Source: a virus
Taxonomy: Duplodnaviria > Caudoviricetes
DNA: 64,000 nt
Virus record (IMG/VR): IMGVR_UViG_3300044842_000203
Location: 32,001 to 96,000 of that record
Reading direction: 5' to 3' (one strand)
Shown here: positions 1 to 34,460 of the stretch, piece after piece
How positions within the stretch are numbered: position 1 is the stretch's first letter
Layout: every line of letters starts with the position of its first letter
Program-made: the position numbers and the translations under genes
The notes under the pieces: model-generated
Database searches by the model: none
What the model saw: only the letters and a program-made list of their open reading frames with translations
Told to the model about the DNA's origin: nothing

Positions 1-2025
1 GTCCGAGGTGCCCCCCACGCTCGGCTCCGGGGCGCCCGACTTGCTCACCGCGTTCTTAGCGGCTTTATCGCGGCGATCCAGTTCGGTTTGCAACGCCAGT
101 TCGGCGACCAGATCTTTACGGGCGTCACCGAGCTGCGCGGTCGTTTTGTTGGCGAGCGCGGCGTCGTCCTCGGCGAGCAGGGCCTCCACCCGATCCTGCC
201 GGTCGGCGACTTCGGGGGTGACGTCTAGTTCCCCGTCGGGGCCTTCGATGAGTCCGTGCTCATCGGGAGTGGCTTCGGGTTCGGGGCCGGGCGCGGGCGC
301 GGCATGATCGTCGAGAGCCCCGGTGGCGGCGCGCTGGGCGGCCTCGTGCGCGGCGCGCTGCCGCTCGTCGGTGGGTAGACCGGCGGAGGCGTCCATGCTG
401 CGCTGGGTGGTGGATTGCGCCTGGATGGCGTCGAGACGTTTCTCCACCACATCCGAGGGCAGCACGAGCAGGGTTTGCGCGACGTCGTGCGGGTCCTGAT
501 CGTCGGGCAGGCCCATGCGGGTGAGGGCGTCGGCGAGGTCATCAACGTTGCCGTCGGCGATGGCGCCTTCGGCGTCGTACCGGGCCTGTGAGGTGTCGAC
601 GTTGGTGGTGTCGAACGGGGTGAGTGAGGCGAGGATGTCCCGAACGGCCTGCTGGTCTTTGGTTTTGACCGAGGCTTTCGTCCACCGCTTACGTCGAGCG
701 TTGATGTCACCCCAGGGGATGGGTAGGGCGGCGAGTTTCGCCAGCGCGTCGTCGATCTGCGCGGGGGGGAAGTTGCCGGGGGCGACGGGCATGAGCCCGG
801 CGTTGGCGGTGTCGACGATCAACCAGTTGCCGTCGGCGCCTTTCACCGCGGCGAACTGCCCATCGGGGGAGGCGTGCACGTCGGCGCCGGGGGTGGCGAA
901 TTGAGTGAGCATGTTCATGCTCGCGATGGCCGCGTTGCCGACGCCGACCTGTCCGGGGTCGCGGTCTTGTGAGGCGAAGTCCTGGTAGCGCTTGTGCAGC
1001 GCGGCGAGCGCGGCGGCAACCCCTGGTCGCACCGCGGCGGGGGTGGGCGTATGGTCGCCGACCGCGGCAGCCCCGGTAGCCATCGCCTGCTGGCCAGACT
1101 CGGCCGGGGCTGCCGCCACGGCGTGGGCGGCATGACCGATCGCAGGGCCGGTGTCGAGGGTTTCCGCGGCCTCGGCGGGCGCGGTGGTGCGTTCAATGTC
1201 GGCGGCGGTGGCGTGGGATTTGCCGCGGGGGCGCATGCCGGGGCGGATGGGGGTGCCGATGGGCAGACCCCAGAACGTGGAGTCACGGACAACGCGGCGG
1301 CCGAGGCCGTGGAGTGCCTTCACGTCGATGGTCCCCTCGACGGGTGAACTGCCGGAACACCCATCAGGATACCAGTCGTCGGTGTCGTCTTGCTGCGGCC
1401 GAACGTGTTCAGCGAGGGATTTCACCCCCGTTAACGTGGCCAGTGGGTGCGCTCCGTGCAAAACTTGCGACCACTCATAAATGTCGTAATCGTGTAAGTA
1501 GCGCAGACCGCGGCGTATTTTCGCCCCACCGGGGCGCACCTTGTAACCGATCGAAAAACATTCCTCGGGGCCGTAGAATTTCGCGTCTGAATAAGCATCC
1601 CGGCCGGCTTGCTTATCCATGTTGTACTGGGCTTTGATCAGCAAGCCGCCCGCGGCAGCTGGCCACGGCTTACCATCCGGGGTTTGCTTCGGCAGGCGCG
1701 GGTCGCCGGGCATCAGCTCCTCGGAGTAGACCAGCTTGGAGACCTTCTGCCCCCAGTTGTGATCCGTCACACCCTTGGGCTTCAAGCGTTTCACCGCGGT
1801 ACCCAGGCTGCCGGGCACGATGACGTCGCCCACCTTGTCGGGCACGCCGGAGACAGCGACGATCGCGGTGATCGTGCCTCTGGAGTCGTCGTGACCGATC
1901 ACCCCCGTCAGGGGTGATGACGTCTCCTCGTTCGGCAGCGCCTTCCATTCCAGGCGCCCCGACTCCCCCAAATCGGCCGGAAATTCAATCTCGTCAAGCT
2001 CCAGCCGGGTTTCGGTTGTGGTCAT
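1..2025 (-). CDS. HK97-family prohead protease domain fused to a long Ala/Pro/Asp-rich C-terminal region (partial, runs off window start)
   Basis: Hand translation from ATG 2025 (ATGA overlap with the upstream stop) stays open to base 1: MTTTETRLELDE...GTITAIVAVSGVPDKVGDVIVPGS...KGVTDHNW...FSIGYKV...YEWSQVLHGAHPLA. The His, FSIGY Ser and E-x-S-x-V motifs match HK97 gp4-like proteases. Absent from the ORF track because there is no stop in the window. Confidence 0.85.
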   Translation of the reverse strand, partial: MTTTETRLELDEIEFPADLGESGRLEWKALPNEETSSPLTGVIGHDDSRGTITAIVAVSGVPDKVGDVIVPGSLGTAVKRLKPKGVTDHNWGQKVSKLVYSEELMPGDPRLPKQTPDGKPWPAAAGGLLIKAQYNMDKQAGRDAYSDAKFYGPEECFSIGYKVRPGGAKIRRGLRYLHDYDIYEWSQVLHGAHPLATLTGVKSLAEHVRPQQDDTDDWYPDGCSGSSPVEGTIDVKALHGLGRRVVRDSTFWGLPIGTPIRPGMRPRGKSHATAADIERTTAPAEAAETLDTGPAIGHAAHAVAAAPAESGQQAMATGAAAVGDHTPTPAAVRPGVAAALAALHKRYQDFASQDRDPGQVGVGNAAIASMNMLTQFATPGADVHASPDGQFAAVKGADGNWLIVDTANAGLMPVAPGNFPPAQIDDALAKLAALPIPWGDINARRKRWTKASVKTKDQQAVRDILASLTPFDTTNVDTSQARYDAEGAIADGNVDDLADALTRMGLPDDQDPHDVAQTLLVLPSDVVEKRLDAIQAQSTTQRSMDASAGLPTDERQRAAHEAAQRAATGALDDHAAPAPGPEPEATPDEHGLIEGPDGELDVTPEVADRQDRVEALLAEDDAALANKTTAQLGDARKDLVAELALQTELDRRDKAAKNAVSKSGAPEPSVGGTSD
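1352..1374 (-). promoter_or_regulatory. GTTCCGG-motif promoter (inside the protease fusion gene)
   Basis: TGG-TATCCT-N7-GTTCCGG. Confidence 0.6.
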
Positions 2026-3902
2026 GCACTCACCGACCCCACATCGAAGAGATCAGGCAGCCCACTGCCGCTGTCCTCGCCCGCATCGCCGCCATCTGCA
2101 CTGGCGTCCGGGACGTCGCCACCGGGGCCGGAGTCGGGGATCATGCGCGCGGCCAGCTGGGCGTGGCGGGCGGTGTCGAGCAGCACCCCCGTGCCGTCGT
2201 CGACGTCACCATCTGGCTCGCCGTCGGGCCCGTCGGCCTCGTCACCGAGGTCGGCGATGTAGCCCGCGGTCCACGGCTCATCGAACTGCTGACCCCAGTC
2301 GTCGATACCGTCGAACAGGGCGGCGATCTCTGGGTCGGTGTCGACGGCCATCGCGGCGGCCTTGGTTTCGATGTCTTCGGACCAGTCGAACTTCACGCCG
2401 ATGGTCAGTGGCTTGCCCACGTTGCCCTTGAGGGTGTGCGCGTTTTTGCCGGGCCACTGGCCGGTGGCCATCTTGTGGATGTTCGCGGTGAGGCCGTTGA
2501 GCACCTTCGGGTTGTGCACGAACTTCGCGAGGTGCCGGCGTAGGCGCTTGAAATCGCCCTTGGAGCCGGGGCGCCACTTCTTGCGGCCCTTCGGGTTGAA
2601 GGCCCAGAAGTTGCGCAGTTTCGCAGCTCGCGGATCAGGGGAAGCGACCTTCACCTCAATGCCGTCTTCGAGGGACTTGCCTTCGGTGGTGGCCTGCTCC
2701 AGGGAGCCGATGCGCTGGGTGATGTGGTGGTCGGCGCCGAGCCGCTTCGCGGCGCCTTTGAGCCGGCGCGCGTTGGCTTTGCGCTTCTCCGGGGGCAGCT
2801 TGTGGTGCGCGCCGATCGCGTTGTGCAGGTCTTGGATGGATTGCAGCGCGGGGTCGTCGTCCGGGTCACCGTCGGCACCAACCCGGCGGCCCATGTTGAG
2901 CCCCTTGTGCTCGGACTTGTCGTCGGCGTCCCCATCGTCCTCGCCGCTGCCCAAATCCTGAATCTTGTCGATCATCTCTTGCCCGGCATTGAGCCGGCGG
3001 GCCTCTTTCAACAGCAGGCGCTTGAGCGCATCCCGGTCGCCGGGCTTGGCCCGCCCCCACGACTGGTAGGCGTTGTCGAGGTCACCGAGTGTCTTGATTG
3101 GGTAGGACTTGGTGCCTTTGAGGGTGTGCCCCTGTTTTGCGAGCTTTTCGCGCTCATCGGTGGAGATGTCGCGTTTCACTTCGAGGGCGCGTTCGCGCAT
3201 CGACGCCGCCCACATCAGGCCGATCTCACCGCAGTTGGCGCCCACCCAGTCGACGCCGCGCGTGTTAAGGGCTTTGCCTTCAGCGACGATCCGGGCGACG
3301 GGGCCGGGCAGGATCGCGGCCACCTCGATGATCTCGGCCGGCGGGGTGAAGGTGATCTCGCCGGATTTCGTTTCAGTGATCACGGGTGCCTCCGCATCGC
3401 CGAGGGGAACGTCGAGCACGTCGCCGGCCAGGGCGAGGCGCAGTGTGGAGAACCGCACCGGGCCGGTGAAGGTGAGCTGATCAGGGTTCAGGCCATAGCC
3501 CGCAGTCACGTGAAAGATCACGGGATCATGCTGCGCGGGCGGGGTCGGGTAGTCGTCGTGCGTAGTGGTCACCCACTGTGCCCACTTGCGTAGCGGGTTG
3601 AGCGCGGGGGAGTCACCCACCAGGTAGACGGCGCAGGGCTGCGGCCCGTCGTCGCTATCGCCCCCGTCGGGGTTGAAGATGGCGTGGCCCATGATGCGGG
3701 CATCCACCGGGTCGAACGCGGGCGCCGATGCGGTGACCAGTTCGCGCAGCCGGGCGGACTGCTCGGGCGCCCAGTCGGCCACGTTGTCGCCGAGGTAGAG
3801 CAGGGTGAGGTGCATCTGCTCCGGCGGGTCGCCCCCATCGACGGCCAGCTGGCCGGCGTTGTCGGGGACCAGGCCGAGGAATCCGCCCGTGTATTCAGTC
3901 AC
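2022..3902 (-). CDS. Multi-domain head-associated protein: N-terminal 2H-phosphoesterase (Acb1/2'-5' RNA ligase-like), two helical repeats (DUF6582-like) and a basic Trp-rich domain
   Basis: Two HxT motifs (MHLTLLYLG, FHVTAGY). Repeat 1 SYPIKTLGDLDNAYQSWGRAK...KEARRLNA and repeat 2 SIQDLHNAIGAH...GAAKRLGA. Coupled to the protease gene. Confidence 0.75.
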   Translation of the reverse strand: MTEYTGGFLGLVPDNAGQLAVDGGDPPEQMHLTLLYLGDNVADWAPEQSARLRELVTASAPAFDPVDARIMGHAIFNPDGGDSDDGPQPCAVYLVGDSPALNPLRKWAQWVTTTHDDYPTPPAQHDPVIFHVTAGYGLNPDQLTFTGPVRFSTLRLALAGDVLDVPLGDAEAPVITETKSGEITFTPPAEIIEVAAILPGPVARIVAEGKALNTRGVDWVGANCGEIGLMWAASMRERALEVKRDISTDEREKLAKQGHTLKGTKSYPIKTLGDLDNAYQSWGRAKPGDRDALKRLLLKEARRLNAGQEMIDKIQDLGSGEDDGDADDKSEHKGLNMGRRVGADGDPDDDPALQSIQDLHNAIGAHHKLPPEKRKANARRLKGAAKRLGADHHITQRIGSLEQATTEGKSLEDGIEVKVASPDPRAAKLRNFWAFNPKGRKKWRPGSKGDFKRLRRHLAKFVHNPKVLNGLTANIHKMATGQWPGKNAHTLKGNVGKPLTIGVKFDWSEDIETKAAAMAVDTDPEIAALFDGIDDWGQQFDEPWTAGYIADLGDEADGPDGEPDGDVDDGTGVLLDTARHAQLAARMIPDSGPGGDVPDASADGGDAGEDSGSGLPDLFDVGSVSA

Positions 3903-4173
3903 AGGGCTTCGCCCCAGCGTGCGGGAGGTGCCAGGTGCCGCCGGTCATCTGCTGGTCGTAGGCGCAGTCGTCGAAGAACACCCCGGATGGGTTGATGACG
4001 AACAGGGACAGCAGGTTATTGCTGAGCACGCCAGAGACCAGCGCGGCGCGGCAGCGCGGCTGGTATATCTGTGTGCCGTCGATGCCTACCGGGCTGCCGT
4101 GAGAGCGGTAGTGCACCCGGTCCCCGAGATCAACGGCAGGACCATCACCGGACGTGATGAGCATGTCGCGCAT
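3895..4173 (-). CDS. Conserved small actinophage protein
   Basis: GDRVHYRSHGSP...CRAALV...VINPSGVFF...GGTWHLP pattern typical of a common phage family; overlaps the next gene's start. Confidence 0.65.
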   Translation of the reverse strand: MRDMLITSGDGPAVDLGDRVHYRSHGSPVGIDGTQIYQPRCRAALVSGVLSNNLLSLFVINPSGVFFDDCAYDQQMTGGTWHLPHAGAKPCD

Positions 4174-4220
4174 GGTGTCAGGCGAGCAGGTTGAGCCGCT
4201 GGTGGGCGCGCCGCGAGCGA

Positions 4221-4249
4221 TAGAAACCGCGGGAGCTGCCTGCTACACT
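4221..4249 (+). promoter_or_regulatory. Sigma70/HrdB-like promoter for candidate sRNA
   Basis: TAGAAA-17 bp-TACACT with extended TG (TGC-TACACT); a G lies 8 nt after the -10, as in the other promoters of this genome. Confidence 0.55.
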
Positions 4250-4256
4250 CGACAGC

Positions 4257-4372
4257 GTTGGTCCATGGGTATCGACTGCGCGGGGTTTGAGGCTTGCCTC
4301 CCCCGGTAGCCACTCCTCGGACTGGCCGGAACCGGAGCAGCCCTCCCAGCAATGGGGGGGCTGTTCGCGTTA
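4257..4372 (+). ncRNA. Candidate trans-acting antisense sRNA complementary to the shared GUUCCGG...GAGGAG mRNA leader
   Basis: Intergenic and opposite to both flanking genes, with promoter upstream and terminator downstream. Hairpins GUUGGU..AUCGAC and CGGGG-GAGG(CUUG)CCUC-CCCCG are followed by CACUCCUCGGACUGGCCGGAAC. Confidence 0.5.
4335..4366. terminator. Intrinsic terminator-like hairpin
   Basis: GAGCAGCCCTCCC-agcaat-GGGGGGGCTGTTC followed by a T-richer tail; the G-U pairs favour the + strand RNA. Confidence 0.65.
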
Positions 4373-4385
4373 TCCGGTTAATTAC

Positions 4386-4781
4386 TCAGCGCATCGCGGC
4401 GCGGCAATGTGAGCACACGCCGTAGGCGATGGTGACCCGATCCAAGGTGATTTCTCCCATGTGCAGCTCATCATCGGTGCGCTTGCAAGCGTCGCAGCGA
4501 AAATTCTCGGGATCCGACGCGGGCAGCATGCCCAGGTGCGCACAGCCGGGGCAGGTGACCAGGCGCGGATTCCAGGCCACCATGCGCACCGGGATGTTGC
4601 TGCGGAAAGTGGGGTTGTGGGGGCAGGAGTCGAACTGACCGGACTGCCACATCGTCATGCGGTTGGTGAACAGGGCAGTCAGCCACTCGGGCACGTCTGC
4701 CCACCGGATGGGCTGCCCCTGAATGCGGGGGCCTTCGAGTTGGCGATTGCGGTGATGTTTGTTGCCGCGAGTGCGGGTCAT
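4386..4781 (-). CDS. Hypothetical Cys-rich protein
   Basis: 131 aa with CxH and three CxxC motifs; 4-bp overlap with the upstream gene. Confidence 0.6.
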   Translation of the reverse strand: MTRTRGNKHHRNRQLEGPRIQGQPIRWADVPEWLTALFTNRMTMWQSGQFDSCPHNPTFRSNIPVRMVAWNPRLVTCPGCAHLGMLPASDPENFRCDACKRTDDELHMGEITLDRVTIAYGVCSHCRAAMR

Positions 4782-5359
4782 GCGGTCACCTGCGTCGGGC
4801 TCGGGCTGGGCGCGTTCGACGGGGGTGTGGGCTCGGGCACGTCCTCGTGCTCCCCACCTTCGTCCCAGTCACACCACGGGCAGCACGGCTGGAGTAGGCG
4901 ATGCTGCTGCATCGCGTAGGCCTCGATCGCCAGCAGCAGATAGAAAACGGCATGCCCGGTGTAGGACAACCAGTCATCAGGGCGGGTGTCTAGCCAGAAC
5001 AGGAAACCGAGCGCGGTGAACGAGGCGAGGGAAAACAGCGCTGAGTGCGCTATCCACAGCCAGGGCCGTCGGCGCCGCGCCACCTCCGCGATATCGAGGG
5101 GGACCTGCTCGGGGCAGATGGTGCACAGCGCCTGGTGGTGGTACCCGTTGGCCAGCCATGTGACGGTGAGCCAGGCCAGCGCAAAAAGGAATAACAGTTC
5201 GGCCGGAAGATGCCATGCCGGGCTCGCGTGATGGGTGAGCATCACGGGGATTTGAGCGATGGCGCTGGCGATAGCTGCGGCGGTCAGTTGGTGGGCTAGG
5301 CGGTTGGCGATTCGGTTGAGCCAGGGGAAGCGTTCATCGAGGCTGGCGACGATCGGCAT
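4778..5359 (-). CDS. Hypothetical membrane protein with CxxC motifs
   Basis: About 4 hydrophobic segments, HQALCTIC and HRLLQPCCPWC; GAGGA RBS before ATG 5359. Confidence 0.6.
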   Translation of the reverse strand: MPIVASLDERFPWLNRIANRLAHQLTAAAIASAIAQIPVMLTHHASPAWHLPAELLFLFALAWLTVTWLANGYHHQALCTICPEQVPLDIAEVARRRRPWLWIAHSALFSLASFTALGFLFWLDTRPDDWLSYTGHAVFYLLLAIEAYAMQQHRLLQPCCPWCDWDEGGEHEDVPEPTPPSNAPSPSPTQVTA

Positions 5360-5379
5360 GAGAGTCCTCACAGGTGGGG

Positions 5380-5421
5380 GAGCGGCCACCCTGCCCGCCG
5401 ATAACAGGCAGGGTGCCGCTC
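5380..5421 (-). terminator. Hairpin after the DUF932 gene
   Basis: GAGCGGCCACCCTGCC...GGCAGGGTGCCGCTC. Confidence 0.55.
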
Positions 5422-5431
5422 CGGTCGGGGG

Positions 5432-6421
5432 TCAGTTCAGGGGCAGCTGAATGTCGGCGACGTCGAGGACTGCATTCAGCGCCGCGATCTGGCTGTTAAC
5501 CACCGGGGCCGTTGGAACGAGCACGCGACGGGCGCGTAGTCGGGCCGGACTCTGAGCCTCGGTCTCGCCCTGAATCTTCTGGTGCCACTGAATCCACTCC
5601 AGCATGGCCTGGTAGTCGCCCCACGCGGTGCCCACGATGCCCCGGTTGGTGTCGCCGTGGCGGATCACCATCATCTGCTCGACCTTGGTTTCGAAGCGGG
5701 TGAGGGTGGCGGGGGCGTCCCCGCGGCGGGGGAACGCGCGCTCGATCATGGCGCGGAACTGCTCGTCGGTGGTGCGCTGGGCGAGCATGATCTCAGCGTC
5801 GCGTTTCGCGGTGGTGAGTGCTTTAGCGGAGTTGGTGAGGATTTCGGCGGCCATCTTGTGCCGCATGTCGATGCGCTTGGTGTGCCGGATGATGACGCGG
5901 CTGGTCTCTTGTGAGATTTGCGGCTGCTGATTGGCGCAGAAGATGCGGGTACCGGTGGGGGCCATGACGTTCGAGCCGGCGCCGTGGGACATGAATGCAG
6001 CGATATAGGCCTCGATGGGGTCTCCGCCGGGGGAGATGGTGTCGGGCAGTTTGAGGGAGATGAAGGCGCGGGCCCCGAGGAGTCGGTAGTGCTCGACGTC
6101 GAGGTCTCCGGCGCGGTCGAAAGTGGCGCCGGTAGCGGCGGCCACGGTGTCGAGGACGGCGGCGACTTCCTCGTATTGGTAGACGGTGAAGTCTTCACCG
6201 ACGGTGATGTTGGGGAAGGGGATGTCGGTGCCGTCGGGTCCGTCGTGGACGAGGAGGTATTTGCCGTCGACCTGGTAGCCGTTGTGGGTGATGGGAGCCT
6301 TGCGGACGTTCAGGTTGGCGAGTCCGGCGGCGGCGAGTGCATCGGAGGCTTCGCGGGCGTGGGTGACGGCGGTGCCGAGGGCGGTGAATGGGTTGGGCGG
6401 GGGGGCGATGGCGACGGTCAT
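5432..6421 (-). CDS. DUF932-family phage/plasmid protein
   Basis: ALAAAGL, GARAFISLKLP, SHG, TRIFCANQ, IRHT and GTAWGDYQAMLEW motifs. Confidence 0.8.
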   Translation of the reverse strand: MTVAIAPPPNPFTALGTAVTHAREASDALAAAGLANLNVRKAPITHNGYQVDGKYLLVHDGPDGTDIPFPNITVGEDFTVYQYEEVAAVLDTVAAATGATFDRAGDLDVEHYRLLGARAFISLKLPDTISPGGDPIEAYIAAFMSHGAGSNVMAPTGTRIFCANQQPQISQETSRVIIRHTKRIDMRHKMAAEILTNSAKALTTAKRDAEIMLAQRTTDEQFRAMIERAFPRRGDAPATLTRFETKVEQMMVIRHGDTNRGIVGTAWGDYQAMLEWIQWHQKIQGETEAQSPARLRARRVLVPTAPVVNSQIAALNAVLDVADIQLPLN

Positions 6422-6441
6422 GTCTTCTCCTCAGTGGTTGG

Positions 6442-6464
6442 CCAGAACACCCTTGATAGTAGTG
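6442..6464 (-). promoter_or_regulatory. GTTCCGG-motif promoter (variant)
   Basis: TACTAT-N7-GTTCTGG. Confidence 0.6.
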
Positions 6465-6509
6465 CAGCCACGAACTTAGCACAATCGTGTAGCTGCAAAC
6501 TTAAGGGGG

Positions 6510-6532
6510 TGGTACGCTGAGCAGCGTTCCGG
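6510..6532 (+). promoter_or_regulatory. GTTCCGG-motif promoter
   Basis: TGG-TACGCT-N7-GTTCCGG. Confidence 0.75.
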
Positions 6533-6550
6533 CAACACCAGGAGACCCCC

Positions 6551-7057
6551 ATGCCTCAGCCCTACGATGCACGCGAAGACTGGCTCGTATCCGTCCATGA
6601 AGCCGGGCACACCGTCATCGGTGCAGAACTCGGCTTCGAGCCCGTGTTCGTCGAAATCCACCTCGGCAAGCTCGGATGGTTCGGCCCCGTCATCGGATGC
6701 GGCGCCACCTACTTCAGCGACAAAAACATGAACATGACCATGCGATACGAGATCGCCGTGCTCTGCTACTCCGGCTGCGCCGCGGGCGCCATGGTCGACC
6801 ACAAAATCAAGGGCCGCTCCTACCGCTCCTGCCACCGGGAAGAAATCATCGCCGGAGGCGGGGGCGACTACCCGGCCGCCGAGTCCCTCTACATCGACTC
6901 AAATCCGATCTGGGCACGGATGCAGCTGCGCGCCGCGGAGCGTCAGGCGATCCAAATGGTGGAGGAGAACTGGCCCGAGATTGAGTTCGTGGGCCGCGCC
7001 ATCCGCACCGTGCGCGAGACACCAGTCGATATGAGCAAACACTGGACGCGGCAATGA
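6551..7057 (+). CDS. Stand-alone M41/FtsH-like HExxH metallopeptidase domain
   Basis: SVHEAGHTVIG, GGGGDY, MVEENWPEIEFV; has its own motif promoter and AGGAG RBS. Confidence 0.65.
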   Translation: MPQPYDAREDWLVSVHEAGHTVIGAELGFEPVFVEIHLGKLGWFGPVIGCGATYFSDKNMNMTMRYEIAVLCYSGCAAGAMVDHKIKGRSYRSCHREEIIAGGGGDYPAAESLYIDSNPIWARMQLRAAERQAIQMVEENWPEIEFVGRAIRTVRETPVDMSKHWTRQ

Positions 7058-7468
7058 GCGGCAAAGTGGCGGCGGCCGTGATCGCGCTCATCCTCGTCCT
7101 TTTCGGGATCATCGTATGGCGATTGATCGTCGACCCGCACGCTCATTGCGTCGTCGCAGGCAAGGTGCCCATCTGCTGGCGTGATCACCAATGAAGCGCA
7201 TCGGAGCGTGGATCCTCGTGCTGGCACTGGCGGTCAGCTCGTTCGCCTCGTGCGCGGGAGAGTATTACTGCTATAAGGATCACCCGGTTGTGGCGGTACT
7301 TGGTGGCTGCACTTCTACGATAAGTAGGTATGACACTACGCGCAGCAATCACCCTGTTCGCAGCAACCGGCGCTCTGTGCCTCATCGCAGCCGCCGCTAG
7401 CCTGGCAGTGGTACTCTGAACACAAGGGCCGAAACCCACGGAAGGAACGCCGTGCACTCGGCCCTTCT

Positions 7469-8833
7469 CTATGCCCCCACCAGCGCGGGCGCCGGAACCT
7501 CCGCCGGCATCACCGGCATCGCCACAATCAACCCCTCCGTCACTGACGCCACCGCCAGCGACGCGCCAGCCGGCAACACCACCGCACCCCCGGCCAAACC
7601 CACCACCGTGCCCGCCGGGATCGACACCGCCAACACCGCCGTCGACACCGCCGCAGACGATGCCAACGCCAGAGTGAGGGTGCGCGGCCACGAGATCCGC
7701 TGCCCCGGCGTCACCGGGGGCATCTCATCCAACGTGCGGTAAGCCACCACATCAGCGGGCACACGCACCGCCGGAACCGACGGGCCACCAATCACCGGGT
7801 CATCATTCGACGTCTCACCCACCGCCGGGGCCGCCAGCAGGGCTCGTGCCGCATCCGGTGTGCCCGAGTCCGCCAGCGTCGTCGCATGCTCGATACCGGC
7901 CAGCGGTTTCGCGAACAACAGCCCGCAGCGGCACCCGGCCACCTCGCCGATGCCCTCGGGGAGCACGGACGGATCACCGGGGAACCGCAGCCGGAACGCA
8001 CCCACTTGATACGGCTGGCCTATTGGCCGCTCCTGCCCGTCGGCGATGCGATGCGTCGGCCGCACCCGGTCATCCCGGCGGGAAATCCACTGCATGTGCG
8101 TCACACCCATGGCCTTCGCTGCCGCGAGCGCCGCATCCCCCGCCAGCGCGGTCGCCAGCGTCCGCCCGTACATCAGATTCCAGTTACCACCACGCCGCAC
8201 CGCCGCCAACACCTGGTCAATCACGTGGTCGAGGTCTTCGGCGGTGGAGTTGGCTTCCATGATGACGGCGCGCACCATCTGCGCCTGCCGGCGTGAGCAC
8301 GCGAGCATCTGCTGGACCGCGGAATCTACTGCCTGCTCGACAGTCGCCCAGTCGAACGCAGCCAGGCCCACATTGGGTCGCCCGAGGGACTGGGCGACAT
8401 GGGAAGCGGCGTCGGCGACGATGCGCAGTCCCACCGGCCGCACCGCGTCAGCGATCTCATCGACCGTCCTATCGGGGAGGATGTAGTCGCCGTCGAGGGC
8501 CTTGGTTTCAGTCCGGTTGTATGTCCTAACAGAGTCATCCACCCTCACCCCAGATACAGACTTCACCTGTTCGGACCAAAAGCGGGTGCCTTTGCGAGCC
8601 CGCGGGCCCCGCAACCGGGCCTCAACCACCCCGGCGAGGCGATCGTTATACGCCGACACCGCCGCATCCATCGCGGCCACCGCCCGGTCCACCCGCGCCG
8701 CCGCATCATCGGCCAGCGCATCCCGGATCGGTCCCTGCGGCGGATCGGGGGGCGCCTCGTGCACCATGACCTGCGTCAGCGGCAAATCCGCCAGGTCATC
8801 GGCGGTAAGCAAATCGCGCGCCGCGCTGCTCAC
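7469..8833 (-). CDS. Phage minor head protein (MuF/SPP1 gp7-like)
   Basis: WISRRDDRVRPTHRIADGQ...LRFPGDP...GCRC; directly downstream of the portal. Confidence 0.85.
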   Translation of the reverse strand: MSSAARDLLTADDLADLPLTQVMVHEAPPDPPQGPIRDALADDAAARVDRAVAAMDAAVSAYNDRLAGVVEARLRGPRARKGTRFWSEQVKSVSGVRVDDSVRTYNRTETKALDGDYILPDRTVDEIADAVRPVGLRIVADAASHVAQSLGRPNVGLAAFDWATVEQAVDSAVQQMLACSRRQAQMVRAVIMEANSTAEDLDHVIDQVLAAVRRGGNWNLMYGRTLATALAGDAALAAAKAMGVTHMQWISRRDDRVRPTHRIADGQERPIGQPYQVGAFRLRFPGDPSVLPEGIGEVAGCRCGLLFAKPLAGIEHATTLADSGTPDAARALLAAPAVGETSNDDPVIGGPSVPAVRVPADVVAYRTLDEMPPVTPGQRISWPRTLTLALASSAAVSTAVLAVSIPAGTVVGLAGGAVVLPAGASLAVASVTEGLIVAMPVMPAEVPAPALVGA

Positions 8834-22515: not shown

Positions 22516-22538
22516 CCGGAACATGGCTAAGGGTATCA
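22516..22538 (-). promoter_or_regulatory. GTTCCGG-motif promoter
   Basis: TGA-TACCCT-N7-GTTCCGG. Confidence 0.75.
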
Positions 22539-25944: not shown

Positions 25945-27026
25945 CGATGCTCGGCAGGGTCGCTACTGGGTAACACGGGTGGGTTAGACGCGCTTGGCTT
26001 GACCTTCGATCAGGTGCACGCCGACCGGCTCCCCGAGCGCCGCCACCTCCGACCAGGCGCCCGGATCGGACAGGATCACCTCGGGCGCCGGCCACACGTA
26101 CACCTCGGGCAGTCCCCGGCACGGCCGGTACGGCTGAGTGCGCTGGCCGATCAACTGCACCAAGTCCCACCGCATACGGCGGGACTCCGACCAGCCCACG
26201 GCGGTGCGGCACGACAGGCGCGAGCATTCCCGGCTGAGGTCGAACTCCCAGTGCGCACACCACAGCACTGCTGTGCCAGCGTCCAACTTGGCGCGGATGT
26301 CGTCGGTGATCACAGCAGCACCGTCACGATCGCGGCCACCAGAAGCCATCCGATGTGCCACCACTGCGCAGCGGGATCGAGTGGCCAGTGCATGGGGGTC
26401 TCCTCAGTGGGGCCGGAACAGGGCCTAGCTATTTACCGCGGGTAGCGTGCGTGAGGCTGAATCTCTCACCGGGTACGGCGACGGTGAGCGGGCCACCGTC
26501 AGGCACCCAGAATCGGCGCGAAACCCCGTCGACGGTGCCGGTGATGATGTGCCCACCCTCGGCGGGTGGTTCGGTGGGCAGGTGCCGGCAATGCCCGCAG
26601 TCACAACCAGGCGTGGCCAGTTCGACCAATCTGGTCACAGCATGCGTCCCTTCATGTCGGCTTTGCACAGTCGGTCGATGCGGCGCGCAGCAGCGGCGAT
26701 CTGCTGCACTTCGCTGGTGGGTAGGCGCCGCAGCAAGGCGGCGATCTCCGTGTCCTCAGTTGCCTCGGGCAGCCCGCAGAGGACGTCCTCCGCGCTGATC
26801 TCAGCCGGCCCAGCCATGTCCCCGATCACCTCGTCGAGGCGGGAGTCGGGCATGGCCGGGTCGCACACCCAGCTGAGAACAACGACCACGGGATCAACAC
26901 CGCTAGCAGTGGCGTGGTCGTTGGCCAGGGAGCGGTACAACAGAGCATCCCGCATGGCCCGGATCTCCGTCGCGGATCGAATATCACCAGGACGCACGTG
27001 CTTCCAAGGCAGGTCAGGGGCGCGCA

Positions 27027-29858: not shown

Positions 29859-29881
29859 CCGGAACGGTTTTCACCGTAGCG
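29859..29881 (-). promoter_or_regulatory. GTTCCGG-motif promoter
   Basis: CGC-TACGGT-N7-GTTCCGG. Confidence 0.65.
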
Positions 29882-30560: not shown

Positions 30561-30583
30561 CCGGAACAGGTCATACACTACCA
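30561..30583 (-). promoter_or_regulatory. GTTCCGG-motif promoter
   Basis: TGG-TAGTGT-N7-GTTCCGG. Confidence 0.75.
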
Positions 30584-33599: not shown

Positions 33600-33751
33600 A
33601 CACATCACGAGCCCGACCGGTGGGGAAGATTGGCCGGGCTCGTGACTACACGGAAAGACGGGATAGTGCTCTCGATAGACCTCCTCTCTCGGCGCCCCCT
33701 GGCAGACGGGCGCCGCGTCGACTAGCCAGGCTTGAGGCCAAGGACCGGAAC
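33600..33751 (-). ncRNA. Candidate structured RNA/leader from a motif promoter with no start codon
   Basis: Promoter 33745-33767, hairpin CGGCGCCC..GGGGCGCCG, GAGGAGG without an ATG/GTG, and a 14-bp hairpin at 33605-33645 with a C-rich loop. Confidence 0.35.
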
Positions 33752-34395: not shown

Positions 34396-34460
34396 CGTTG
34401 ATCACTCCTGGTGCGGGTAGGGCCGGAACACCCTATGTATCGGCCGGAACAAGGCATGCG

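Follow-up and report, generated by a model that had tools for sequence, protein, structure and literature searches.

The DNA analyzed here (64,000 nucleotides, nt; hereafter the window) is part (bases 32001-96000) of an IMG/VR virus record, 111.5 kb long and of 65% G+C content, from an uncultured phage known from metagenomes only. In a 212-nt gap separating two of its minus-strand genes, a candidate transcription unit was located on the plus strand, the predicted small RNA of which carries an invariant and exposed core complementary to the heptamer GTTCCGG. This heptamer forms a tag at the predicted 5' end of some 30 transcription units of the same phage. In view of the comparative and folding evidence, a functional plus-strand RNA is likely, and the probability that it serves as a trans-acting, base-pairing regulator of the tagged transcripts is estimated at about 0.45. 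The small transcription unit itself, proposed in an earlier note made by inspection of the letters, is well supported by a comparison of six lineages in terms of promoter geometry, start base, covarying terminator and exposed core.

Conservation of the unit among relatives

Relatives were found in IMG/VR, JGI metagenomes and GTDB genomes by scans guided by protein sequence or by pattern. The six lineages compared were that of the window (WIN), L012, the L013 group (with the near-identical L019, L024 and L027), L014, L023 and L025; three larger relatives, G001-G003, were taken as whole genomes, and their promoters likewise bear the heptamer. The unit occupies the identical place in 6/6 lineages, between a gene encoding a zinc-ribbon-like domain and a gene for a protein of 92 amino acids (aa), and this synteny is maintained in relatives. 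The 92-aa proteins of the five other lineages share 53-67% identity with that of the window. Near more distant homologues of the 92-aa gene, for example in a Kutzneria genome (33% identity), both the unit and the heptamer were absent.

The conserved elements of the plus strand follow one another in a constant order, starting with a 12-nt block, a GC-rich 10-mer, TRGAAW, an unconserved stretch of 17-18 nt, TGYTACACT, 7 nt and an invariant G (position 4257). This G is followed by a variable body of 50-85 nt, CUCCUC, 3-4 variable nt, GGCCGGAACC, a hairpin and TTCGCG. In the window, TAGAAA (4221-4226) is separated by a 17-nt spacer from TACACT (4244-4249), and the TG of the extended -10 lies at 4241-4242. 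This extended -10 sequence is unique in the genome and is of the TGnTAnnnT type, like the main promoters of the phage. In the alignment of the whole gap, the base preceding the invariant G was a conserved pyrimidine. Hexamers held at a fixed distance over a diverged spacer, together with conserved bases at -1 (pyrimidine) and +1 (G), form the footprint expected of a promoter.

Within the predicted RNA, GGCCGGAACC is the sole invariant internal block; the plus strand reads GGCCGGAAC at 4324-4332. The tail UUCGCGUU is likewise invariant, contains four U in eight positions and is present on the plus side of the hairpin only. Every letter that the earlier note quoted from 4221-4372 was found in its place, and the anatomy that it described holds. 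Its description of the unit as antiparallel to the neighboring genes is a reading, since the copy of the motif is itself co-oriented with these genes, and the support for that reading is entirely comparative.

Strand-specific structure signals

The RNAalifold consensus structure of the plus strand reached -29.4 kcal/mol with 22 pairs, versus -9.7 kcal/mol and 9 pairs for the reverse complement, values that are no more than indicative, as the two alignments differ. In the plus-strand structure, 92% of the alignment cells were paired, compared with 81% in shuffles (none of 500 reached the observed value) and 38-52% when the pairing partners were slid, and changes on both sides were observed at 9 pairs. 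The terminator helix accounted for 14 consensus pairs, which were 98% paired and 6 of which showed changes on both sides. When single lineages were folded, the plus strand was the more stable in 6/6, with better shuffle z-scores in 5/6, and the terminator alone favored the plus strand by 3-9 kcal/mol in all six lineages.

Moreover, the terminators contain 10 G.U wobble pairs on the plus strand and none on the minus strand, where C.A mismatches appear instead. Stable tetraloops were also found on the plus strand, including GCAA in the terminators of the window and L013, UUCG closed by C-G in the terminator of L025 and, in the internal hairpin, CUUG closed by G-C in the window and GAAA in L025. 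The minus-strand complements of these loops yield no stable tetraloops. By a rough estimate, which assumes that ~5% of tetraloops qualify, the probability of four independent stable tetraloops among ~10 loops is ~0.001. A control hairpin at G001:16811, located before a neighboring gene, prefers the gene-sense strand, and the plus-strand asymmetry at the unit is thus no general effect of base composition.

The leader tag and its regulon

The heptamer GTTCCGG occurs in 53 copies across the whole 111.5-kb genome. Its extension to an 8-mer, GTTCCGGC, was counted 28 times in the window versus 4.5 expected, and none of 100 shuffles reached 28. In 23 of the heptamer copies, TANNNT (usually TGGTAnnnT) is positioned 6-8 nt upstream and a pyrimidine at -1, a spacing by which the predicted +1 falls on the initial G of the heptamer. 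Besides the copy within the unit, at 4332(-), 32 copies are leader-like, having either a TANNNT -10 box at 6-8 nt upstream or a Shine-Dalgarno sequence (SD) and start codon downstream. In nearly all of the 32 (three excepted), an SD and an open reading frame (ORF) come next, at a distance of 10-55 nt. The earlier estimate of a regulon of 25-30 genes is fair in the light of this genome-wide count, and the leaders singled out at that time bear inspection: those at 26419(-) and 41453(-) have the identical 14-nt offset to GAGGAG, the copy at 22522(-) reads as claimed, including its GAGGAG, and the 10-nt match at 30567(-) and 58569(+) is additionally found at 29865(-) and 30387(-).

A second class of leaders consists of GTTCCGGC(C), an SD and a start codon, with no -10; in relatives, such leaders often stand right after a strong hairpin. 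The presence of the tag inside operons suggests a role at the RNA level, e.g., in processing or in mimicry of a 5' end.

Proposed seed and mechanism

In ensemble folds of the predicted RNA, the 5' domain ends right before the core and the terminator starts right after it. In 5/6 lineages (the exception being L013), CGGAACC ranks 2-6 among ~100 7-nt windows for predicted accessibility, and the CUCCUC box has a predicted unpaired probability of 0.36-0.56. An invariant exposed stretch between covarying helices, as predicted here, is the usual look of a seed. With each of the 32 leaders, the core can form 7-10 contiguous Watson-Crick pairs, counted from +1.

From the observed anatomy, conservation, strand signals and complementarity we infer transcription, pairing in vivo and a regulatory effect, which would proceed as follows. 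A host-type extended -10 promoter (TRGAAW, 17-18 nt, TGYTACACT) would start a plus-strand RNA at G 4257, and a GC-rich hairpin followed by UUCGCGUU would terminate it near 4371. The RNA would then consist of a variable 5' domain and the terminator, with GGCCGGAACC in a single-stranded linker and CUCCUC 3-4 nt upstream of it. Base pairs would form between the linker and the 5'-terminal 7-10 nt (GUUCCGGYC) of ~30 tagged phage messenger RNAs (mRNAs), and the C/U box would also cover the SD in those cases where it lies 11-16 nt from the 5' end of the mRNA. The predicted outcome is co-ordinated control of translation and/or of 5'-end-dependent decay of the tagged transcripts. Its sign could be either, as cover of the SD would repress, while cover of the 5' end could protect from 5'-dependent decay. 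In addition, the RNA would be fully complementary to read-through mRNA that crosses the locus towards the 92-aa gene and the head genes, and action in cis would therefore be expected too. The broader proposal, that one RNA reads the tag on essentially all early and middle transcripts and switches the set off or stabilizes it at a defined stage, is put forward tentatively, as the less probable part of the scheme.

Several observations weigh against regulation in trans. The tag copy at 4332(-) shares its strand with the neighboring genes, as all other copies in that arm do; being co-oriented with the leaders, it renders the complementarity of the plus strand to them automatic, and this complementarity is not evidence on its own. 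The geometry of a two-part clamp, with an SD offset of 11-16 nt, suits only ~14 of the 32 leaders. Minimum-free-energy folds show pairing of the initial three core bases with the 5' end of the RNA and of the AAC with the 3' GUU, and in the fold of the L013 lineage the core is largely paired. The heptamer never varies between lineages, which leaves no covariation of seed and target to score. When the complement of the 4332(-) copy was used as a probe, its mean duplex energy with the other leaders ranked 4/33, 8/30, 1/10 and 2/22 among all leaders of four genomes, i.e., in the top quarter; this speaks for pairing, but the test is weak (Fisher p ~0.04) and its lineages are related and not independent. 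A generic scan for E. coli-type sigma-70 promoters and terminators calls nothing at the unit, since the hexamers match 8/12 positions and the tail contains 4 T in 8. Finally, the relatives hold gene-sense modules composed of a hairpin, GTTCCGGC(C), an SD and a start codon, and the locus could be one of them.

Alternative readings of the locus

The last of these points underlies the alternative that survives best, although it is considered unlikely, in which there is no functional plus-strand RNA and the locus consists of a minus-strand intercistronic hairpin, a promoter-less "class II" tag and an orphan SD-like box. The tag would then act as a processing or protein-recognition site that gives the downstream RNA the 5' end of a primary transcript. 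The orphan SD would serve as a 5' stabilizer, for which the STAB-SD of Bacillus cryIIIA mRNA offers a likeness, or as a ribosome standby site for the 92-aa gene, which has no SD of its own. Such an arrangement fits the co-orientation of the tag copy with its neighbors, the retention of two SD-like boxes without a start codon in most lineages, and the recurrence of -10-less modules in relatives, some of them just upstream of the locus. It leaves unexplained, however, the geometry of -35, spacer, extended -10 and +1 G, as well as the wobble pairs confined to the plus strand, the stable tetraloops and the invariant T-containing tail; moreover, the control module at G001:16811 has the opposite strand preference. 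A gene-sense hairpin-leader module is a likely evolutionary source of the unit.

Also unlikely, although it accepts the plus-strand RNA as real, is a role restricted to cis, either by collision of transcription with the minus-strand operon or through a duplex of ~115 bp with read-through mRNA. The RNA would thereby gate the SD-less 92-aa gene and the head genes, and its match to the leaders would be a by-product of an internal leader element. All of the evidence for a plus-strand RNA applies equally to this possibility, and the unit is placed between the upstream gene block and the genes for the 92-aa, 626-aa and giant head proteins. Among the compared lineages, the minus strand has no conserved TANNNT from 4333 to 4174, i.e., between the hairpin and the 92-aa gene, so that this gene probably requires transcription that reads through the unit; the hairpin has no T-rich tail on that strand. 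An RNA acting in cis alone has no need for an invariant internal block, yet it is precisely the complement of the leader tag that is invariant and exposed. Action in cis and in trans can, in any case, coexist.

A DNA site was considered as well, in which a phage protein would bind GTTCCGG, block elongation in an orientation-specific manner and gate the border of the head genes. The precedent is provided by the stoperators of Cluster A mycobacteriophages, described in PMC9283540 as a short asymmetric protein-bound motif in dozens of copies, oriented with transcription. The 53 copies of the heptamer are similarly asymmetric, the leader-like ones being co-oriented with the genes, and the rigid spacing of the blocks upstream of the unit suggests a protein-DNA architecture. 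In contrast to the stoperators, which are scattered over short intergenic spaces, are bound by the immunity repressor and have no fixed spacing to a -10, 23 copies of the tag keep a constant distance (6-8 nt) to a -10, as would an element of the start site at promoter +1, and the opposite strand of the unit is conserved in the manner of an RNA. The analysis identified neither a candidate binding protein nor a repressor, and the plus-strand RNA signals would be left unexplained.

The eighth position of the tag also bears on this question. In the promoter-linked leaders of the present genome (G000), GTTCCGGC was found in 17/23, and in those of G001, G002 and G003, GTTCCGGT was found in 15/19, 5/6 and 16/17, respectively. 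In these three relatives, the promoter-linked leaders thus mostly carry T at position 8, whereas C is kept at the locus copy; the G of the predicted RNA opposite this position pairs with C or U alike. The pattern is compatible with recognition at the RNA level and slightly awkward for a DNA site, which is rated improbable overall.

The class I promoter-leaders of the phage (TGGTAnnnT, 7 nt, GTTCCGG, SD, start) share the tag, the SD-like box and the orientation with the locus. In contrast to them, the 4332(-) copy has no -10 (TANNNT) upstream and no usable start codon after its SD-like box in 6/6 lineages; it abuts the hairpin, the 3' arm of which takes the place of the -10. The locus is therefore not an ordinary promoter-leader. 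That it is a decayed one, functionless after loss of its gene, as the earlier note had offered as an alternative, found no support and is highly improbable, since the tag, the promoter blocks and the terminator are invariant or covarying in six lineages amid sequence that has diverged to lengths of 101-134 nt; the 3' arm of the hairpin does resemble a phage -10 (e.g., GAGGCT six nt before the tag in L014, TGGGAGGGCT in the window), and such decay is a plausible origin of the element.

Table 1. Coordinates of the predicted unit, its flanking genes and blocks, and the leaders that have no -10 (window positions unless another genome is named).
Feature	Position	Strand	Evidence or remark
Downstream neighbor, 92-aa gene (phrog_2293), no SD	3895..4173	-	PHROG match
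12-nt block GCATGGTGTCAG (as read on plus strand), covers annotated ATG of 92-aa gene	4170..4181		Invariant in all lineages
GC-rich block GGCRCGCCGC, just upstream of -35	4205..4214		Invariant but for one R; 26-27 nt from -10 block
-35-like hexamer TAGAAA (TRGAAW across lineages)	4221..4226	+	17-18 nt before -10; spacer fully diverged
Extended -10, TGC TACACT (TGYTACACT in 6/6 lineages)	4241..4249	+	Invariant block
Predicted small RNA, 115 nt (101-134 nt in relatives)	4257..4371	+	From invariant G 7 nt after -10 to end of terminator tail
Internal hairpin, GAGG-loop-CCUC	4289..4300	+	Loop CUUG here, GAAA in L025, UAU in L013, larger in others
C/U-rich anti-SD box CUCCUC, complement of leader GAGGAG	4313..4318	+	In 5 lineages; CCCUC in L013 group
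Invariant core GGCCGGAACC, complement of 5' leader tag GTTCCGGCC, proposed seed	4324..4333	+	Invariant in 7/7 sequences
Terminator hairpin, 16 pairs, GCAA loop, then tail UUCGCGUU	4333..4371 (helix 4333-4369)	+	Covariation; invariant TTCGCG
Upstream neighbor, 131-aa gene, zinc-ribbon-like domain	4386..4781	-	Stop codon 15 nt past predicted RNA 3' end
Leaders without -10	G001:16811, 17362, 119696; G002:5599 (loci L028, L033, L035); window 30387(-), 58569(+), 59943(+)		

Neighboring genes and upstream blocks

The 92-aa gene is followed by a gene for a 626-aa protein and then by the (giant) head genes. A leaderless or sigma-A promoter on the minus strand was rejected for the 92-aa gene, in the absence of a conserved TANNNT. 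In L025, the annotated-type ATG of this gene is out of frame with its ORF, and the 12-nt block that covers the corresponding start in the window is therefore conserved not merely as coding sequence; it may be a regulatory element. Translation of the 92-aa gene may in fact begin at codon 4, an ATG or GTG (window 4164-4181; L025:7000-7030).

The 12-nt block sits 22-23 nt from the next conserved block, which is GC-rich, in all lineages. The latter block (4205..4214) falls in different frames in L012 and L013, and is thus non-coding; a regulator of the small-RNA promoter may bind there. Throughout 4170-4249, the distances between the blocks (26-27 and 22-23 nt) are fixed in all lineages and the sequence between them is diverged, which suggests a protein-DNA architecture upstream of this promoter. 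An N-terminal extension of the 92-aa protein, as occurs in P0004, P0005 and P0008, was rejected as the cause of the upstream blocks, since there is no start codon at that place in the window and the frames of the blocks differ between L012 and L013.

Further features of tagged promoters

Downstream of three tagged promoters, at 33751(-), 47481(+) and genome position 99961(+) (3961 nt past the end of the window), there are 94-234 nt devoid of SD and ORF. These promoters could have long leaders or produce further non-coding RNAs that start with the tag; if the anti-leader RNA is real, these three ORF-less transcripts would be candidate targets or sponges. At 34429-34450(-) in the window, two tandem copies of the tag stand 21 nt apart before one gene.

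An operator-like near-palindrome, GTGYAGCTGCAAA, replaces or overlaps the -35 of four tagged promoters, at 6487(+), 23638(-), 33246(-) and 34477(-). A variant of this near-palindrome is present once in G001, and G002 and G003 lack it altogether; its probable function is to bind a lineage-specific repressor. Palindromic operator-like GTGTAGCTGCAAA sites were rejected as being connected with the -10 block of the unit (which reads GTGTAGCA on the minus strand), since they are found four times here, as one variant in G001 and not in G002 or G003, while that block shows no variation anywhere.

The same sequence recurs at both ends of the record (genome positions 1-550 versus 111020-111566), which indicates terminal redundancy or a circularly permuted assembly. 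The end repeats contain heptamer copies at 408/458/467 and 111427/111477/111486, and the palindrome GTTCCGGAAC is present in each of them.

Database and literature searches

Rfam, including its C4 antisense RNA family, yielded no match in the window at the gathering score, and none in 4150-4420 up to an E-value of 10; the scan for transfer RNAs likewise gave nothing. A search for RNA sequencing runs covering 2000-8000 of the window listed none. No DNA match of the intergenic unit was found among 50,697 phage records. With respect to isolated phages, a single remote protein match was obtained, to Streptomyces phage Kromp, and megablast of 3000-6000 returned only a 50-nt match to Cluster AA mycobacteriophages, with no close isolated phage.

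Small peptides encoded by ORFs at 4154-4309(+), 4287-4412(+) and 4086-4352(-) were rejected as the product of the unit, as these ORFs are not conserved and have no family match; Pfam and PHROGs gave nothing for the 88-aa ORF that overlaps the predicted RNA. Between lineages, the unit varies in length by indels not divisible by three, and it hence contains no conserved ORF. Among the matches to the pattern CCGGTTCCGGCC..CGAGGAG, four were coincidences in coding sequence and one was a true relative, and one match of a later pattern scan, L022, was also a coincidence. A literature search on the heptamer returned only unrelated papers, as judged from titles and abstracts, and nothing was found in a search on small antisense RNAs of actinobacteriophages.

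Comparison with known systems

In terms of mechanism, the c4 antisense RNA of phages P1 and P7 (immI), a phage antisense repressor (PMC8201110, where Citron and Schuster, 1990, are cited), comes closest among described systems. The two have in common that a phage small RNA makes (or, at the present locus, would make) short two-part contacts with the leader and ribosome-binding region of an mRNA. The c4 RNA controls a single operon (icd/ant); it is encoded upstream of its target within one transcript, from which processing releases it. The unit described here, in contrast, has its own conserved promoter, lies on the strand opposite to all of its neighbors, and contains a core that matches the tag of ~30 transcription units.

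The C-rich small RNAs of Gram-positive bacteria provide a second comparison. RsaE/RoxS of the Firmicutes and 6C RNA of the Actinobacteria are Hfq-independent, and their exposed C-rich motifs pair with the G-rich SDs of many mRNAs; RoxS has also been reported to pair at the extreme 5' end, thereby altering decay by RNase J. The predicted RNA would likewise present a C-rich motif to the SD regions of many mRNAs. Unlike the phage unit, however, these RNAs are encoded by the host and recognize the SD only, whereas the invariant element of the unit is the complement of a phage-specific 5'-terminal tag.

Significance

The temporal programs of phages are usually credited to proteins, i.e., repressors, sigma factors, anti-terminators and modifiers of the polymerase. 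If trans-acting regulation by the predicted RNA is true, one small RNA would recognize, on ~30 transcription units, a 5' tag made by the phage itself, thus compactly co-regulating a class of genes by RNA only, and the invariant heptamer at +1 of the promoters of this clade would be explained. To our knowledge, almost no phage small RNAs have been described in high-GC phages, to which the unit would add a case of multi-target control by a small RNA. The tag and its RNA would also constitute a portable pair for synthetic control in actinobacteria. For the biology of the phages themselves, the broader proposal, if true, would amount to an RNA-based global program switch in an actinobacterial phage clade, in which the tag would serve as a self-address label.

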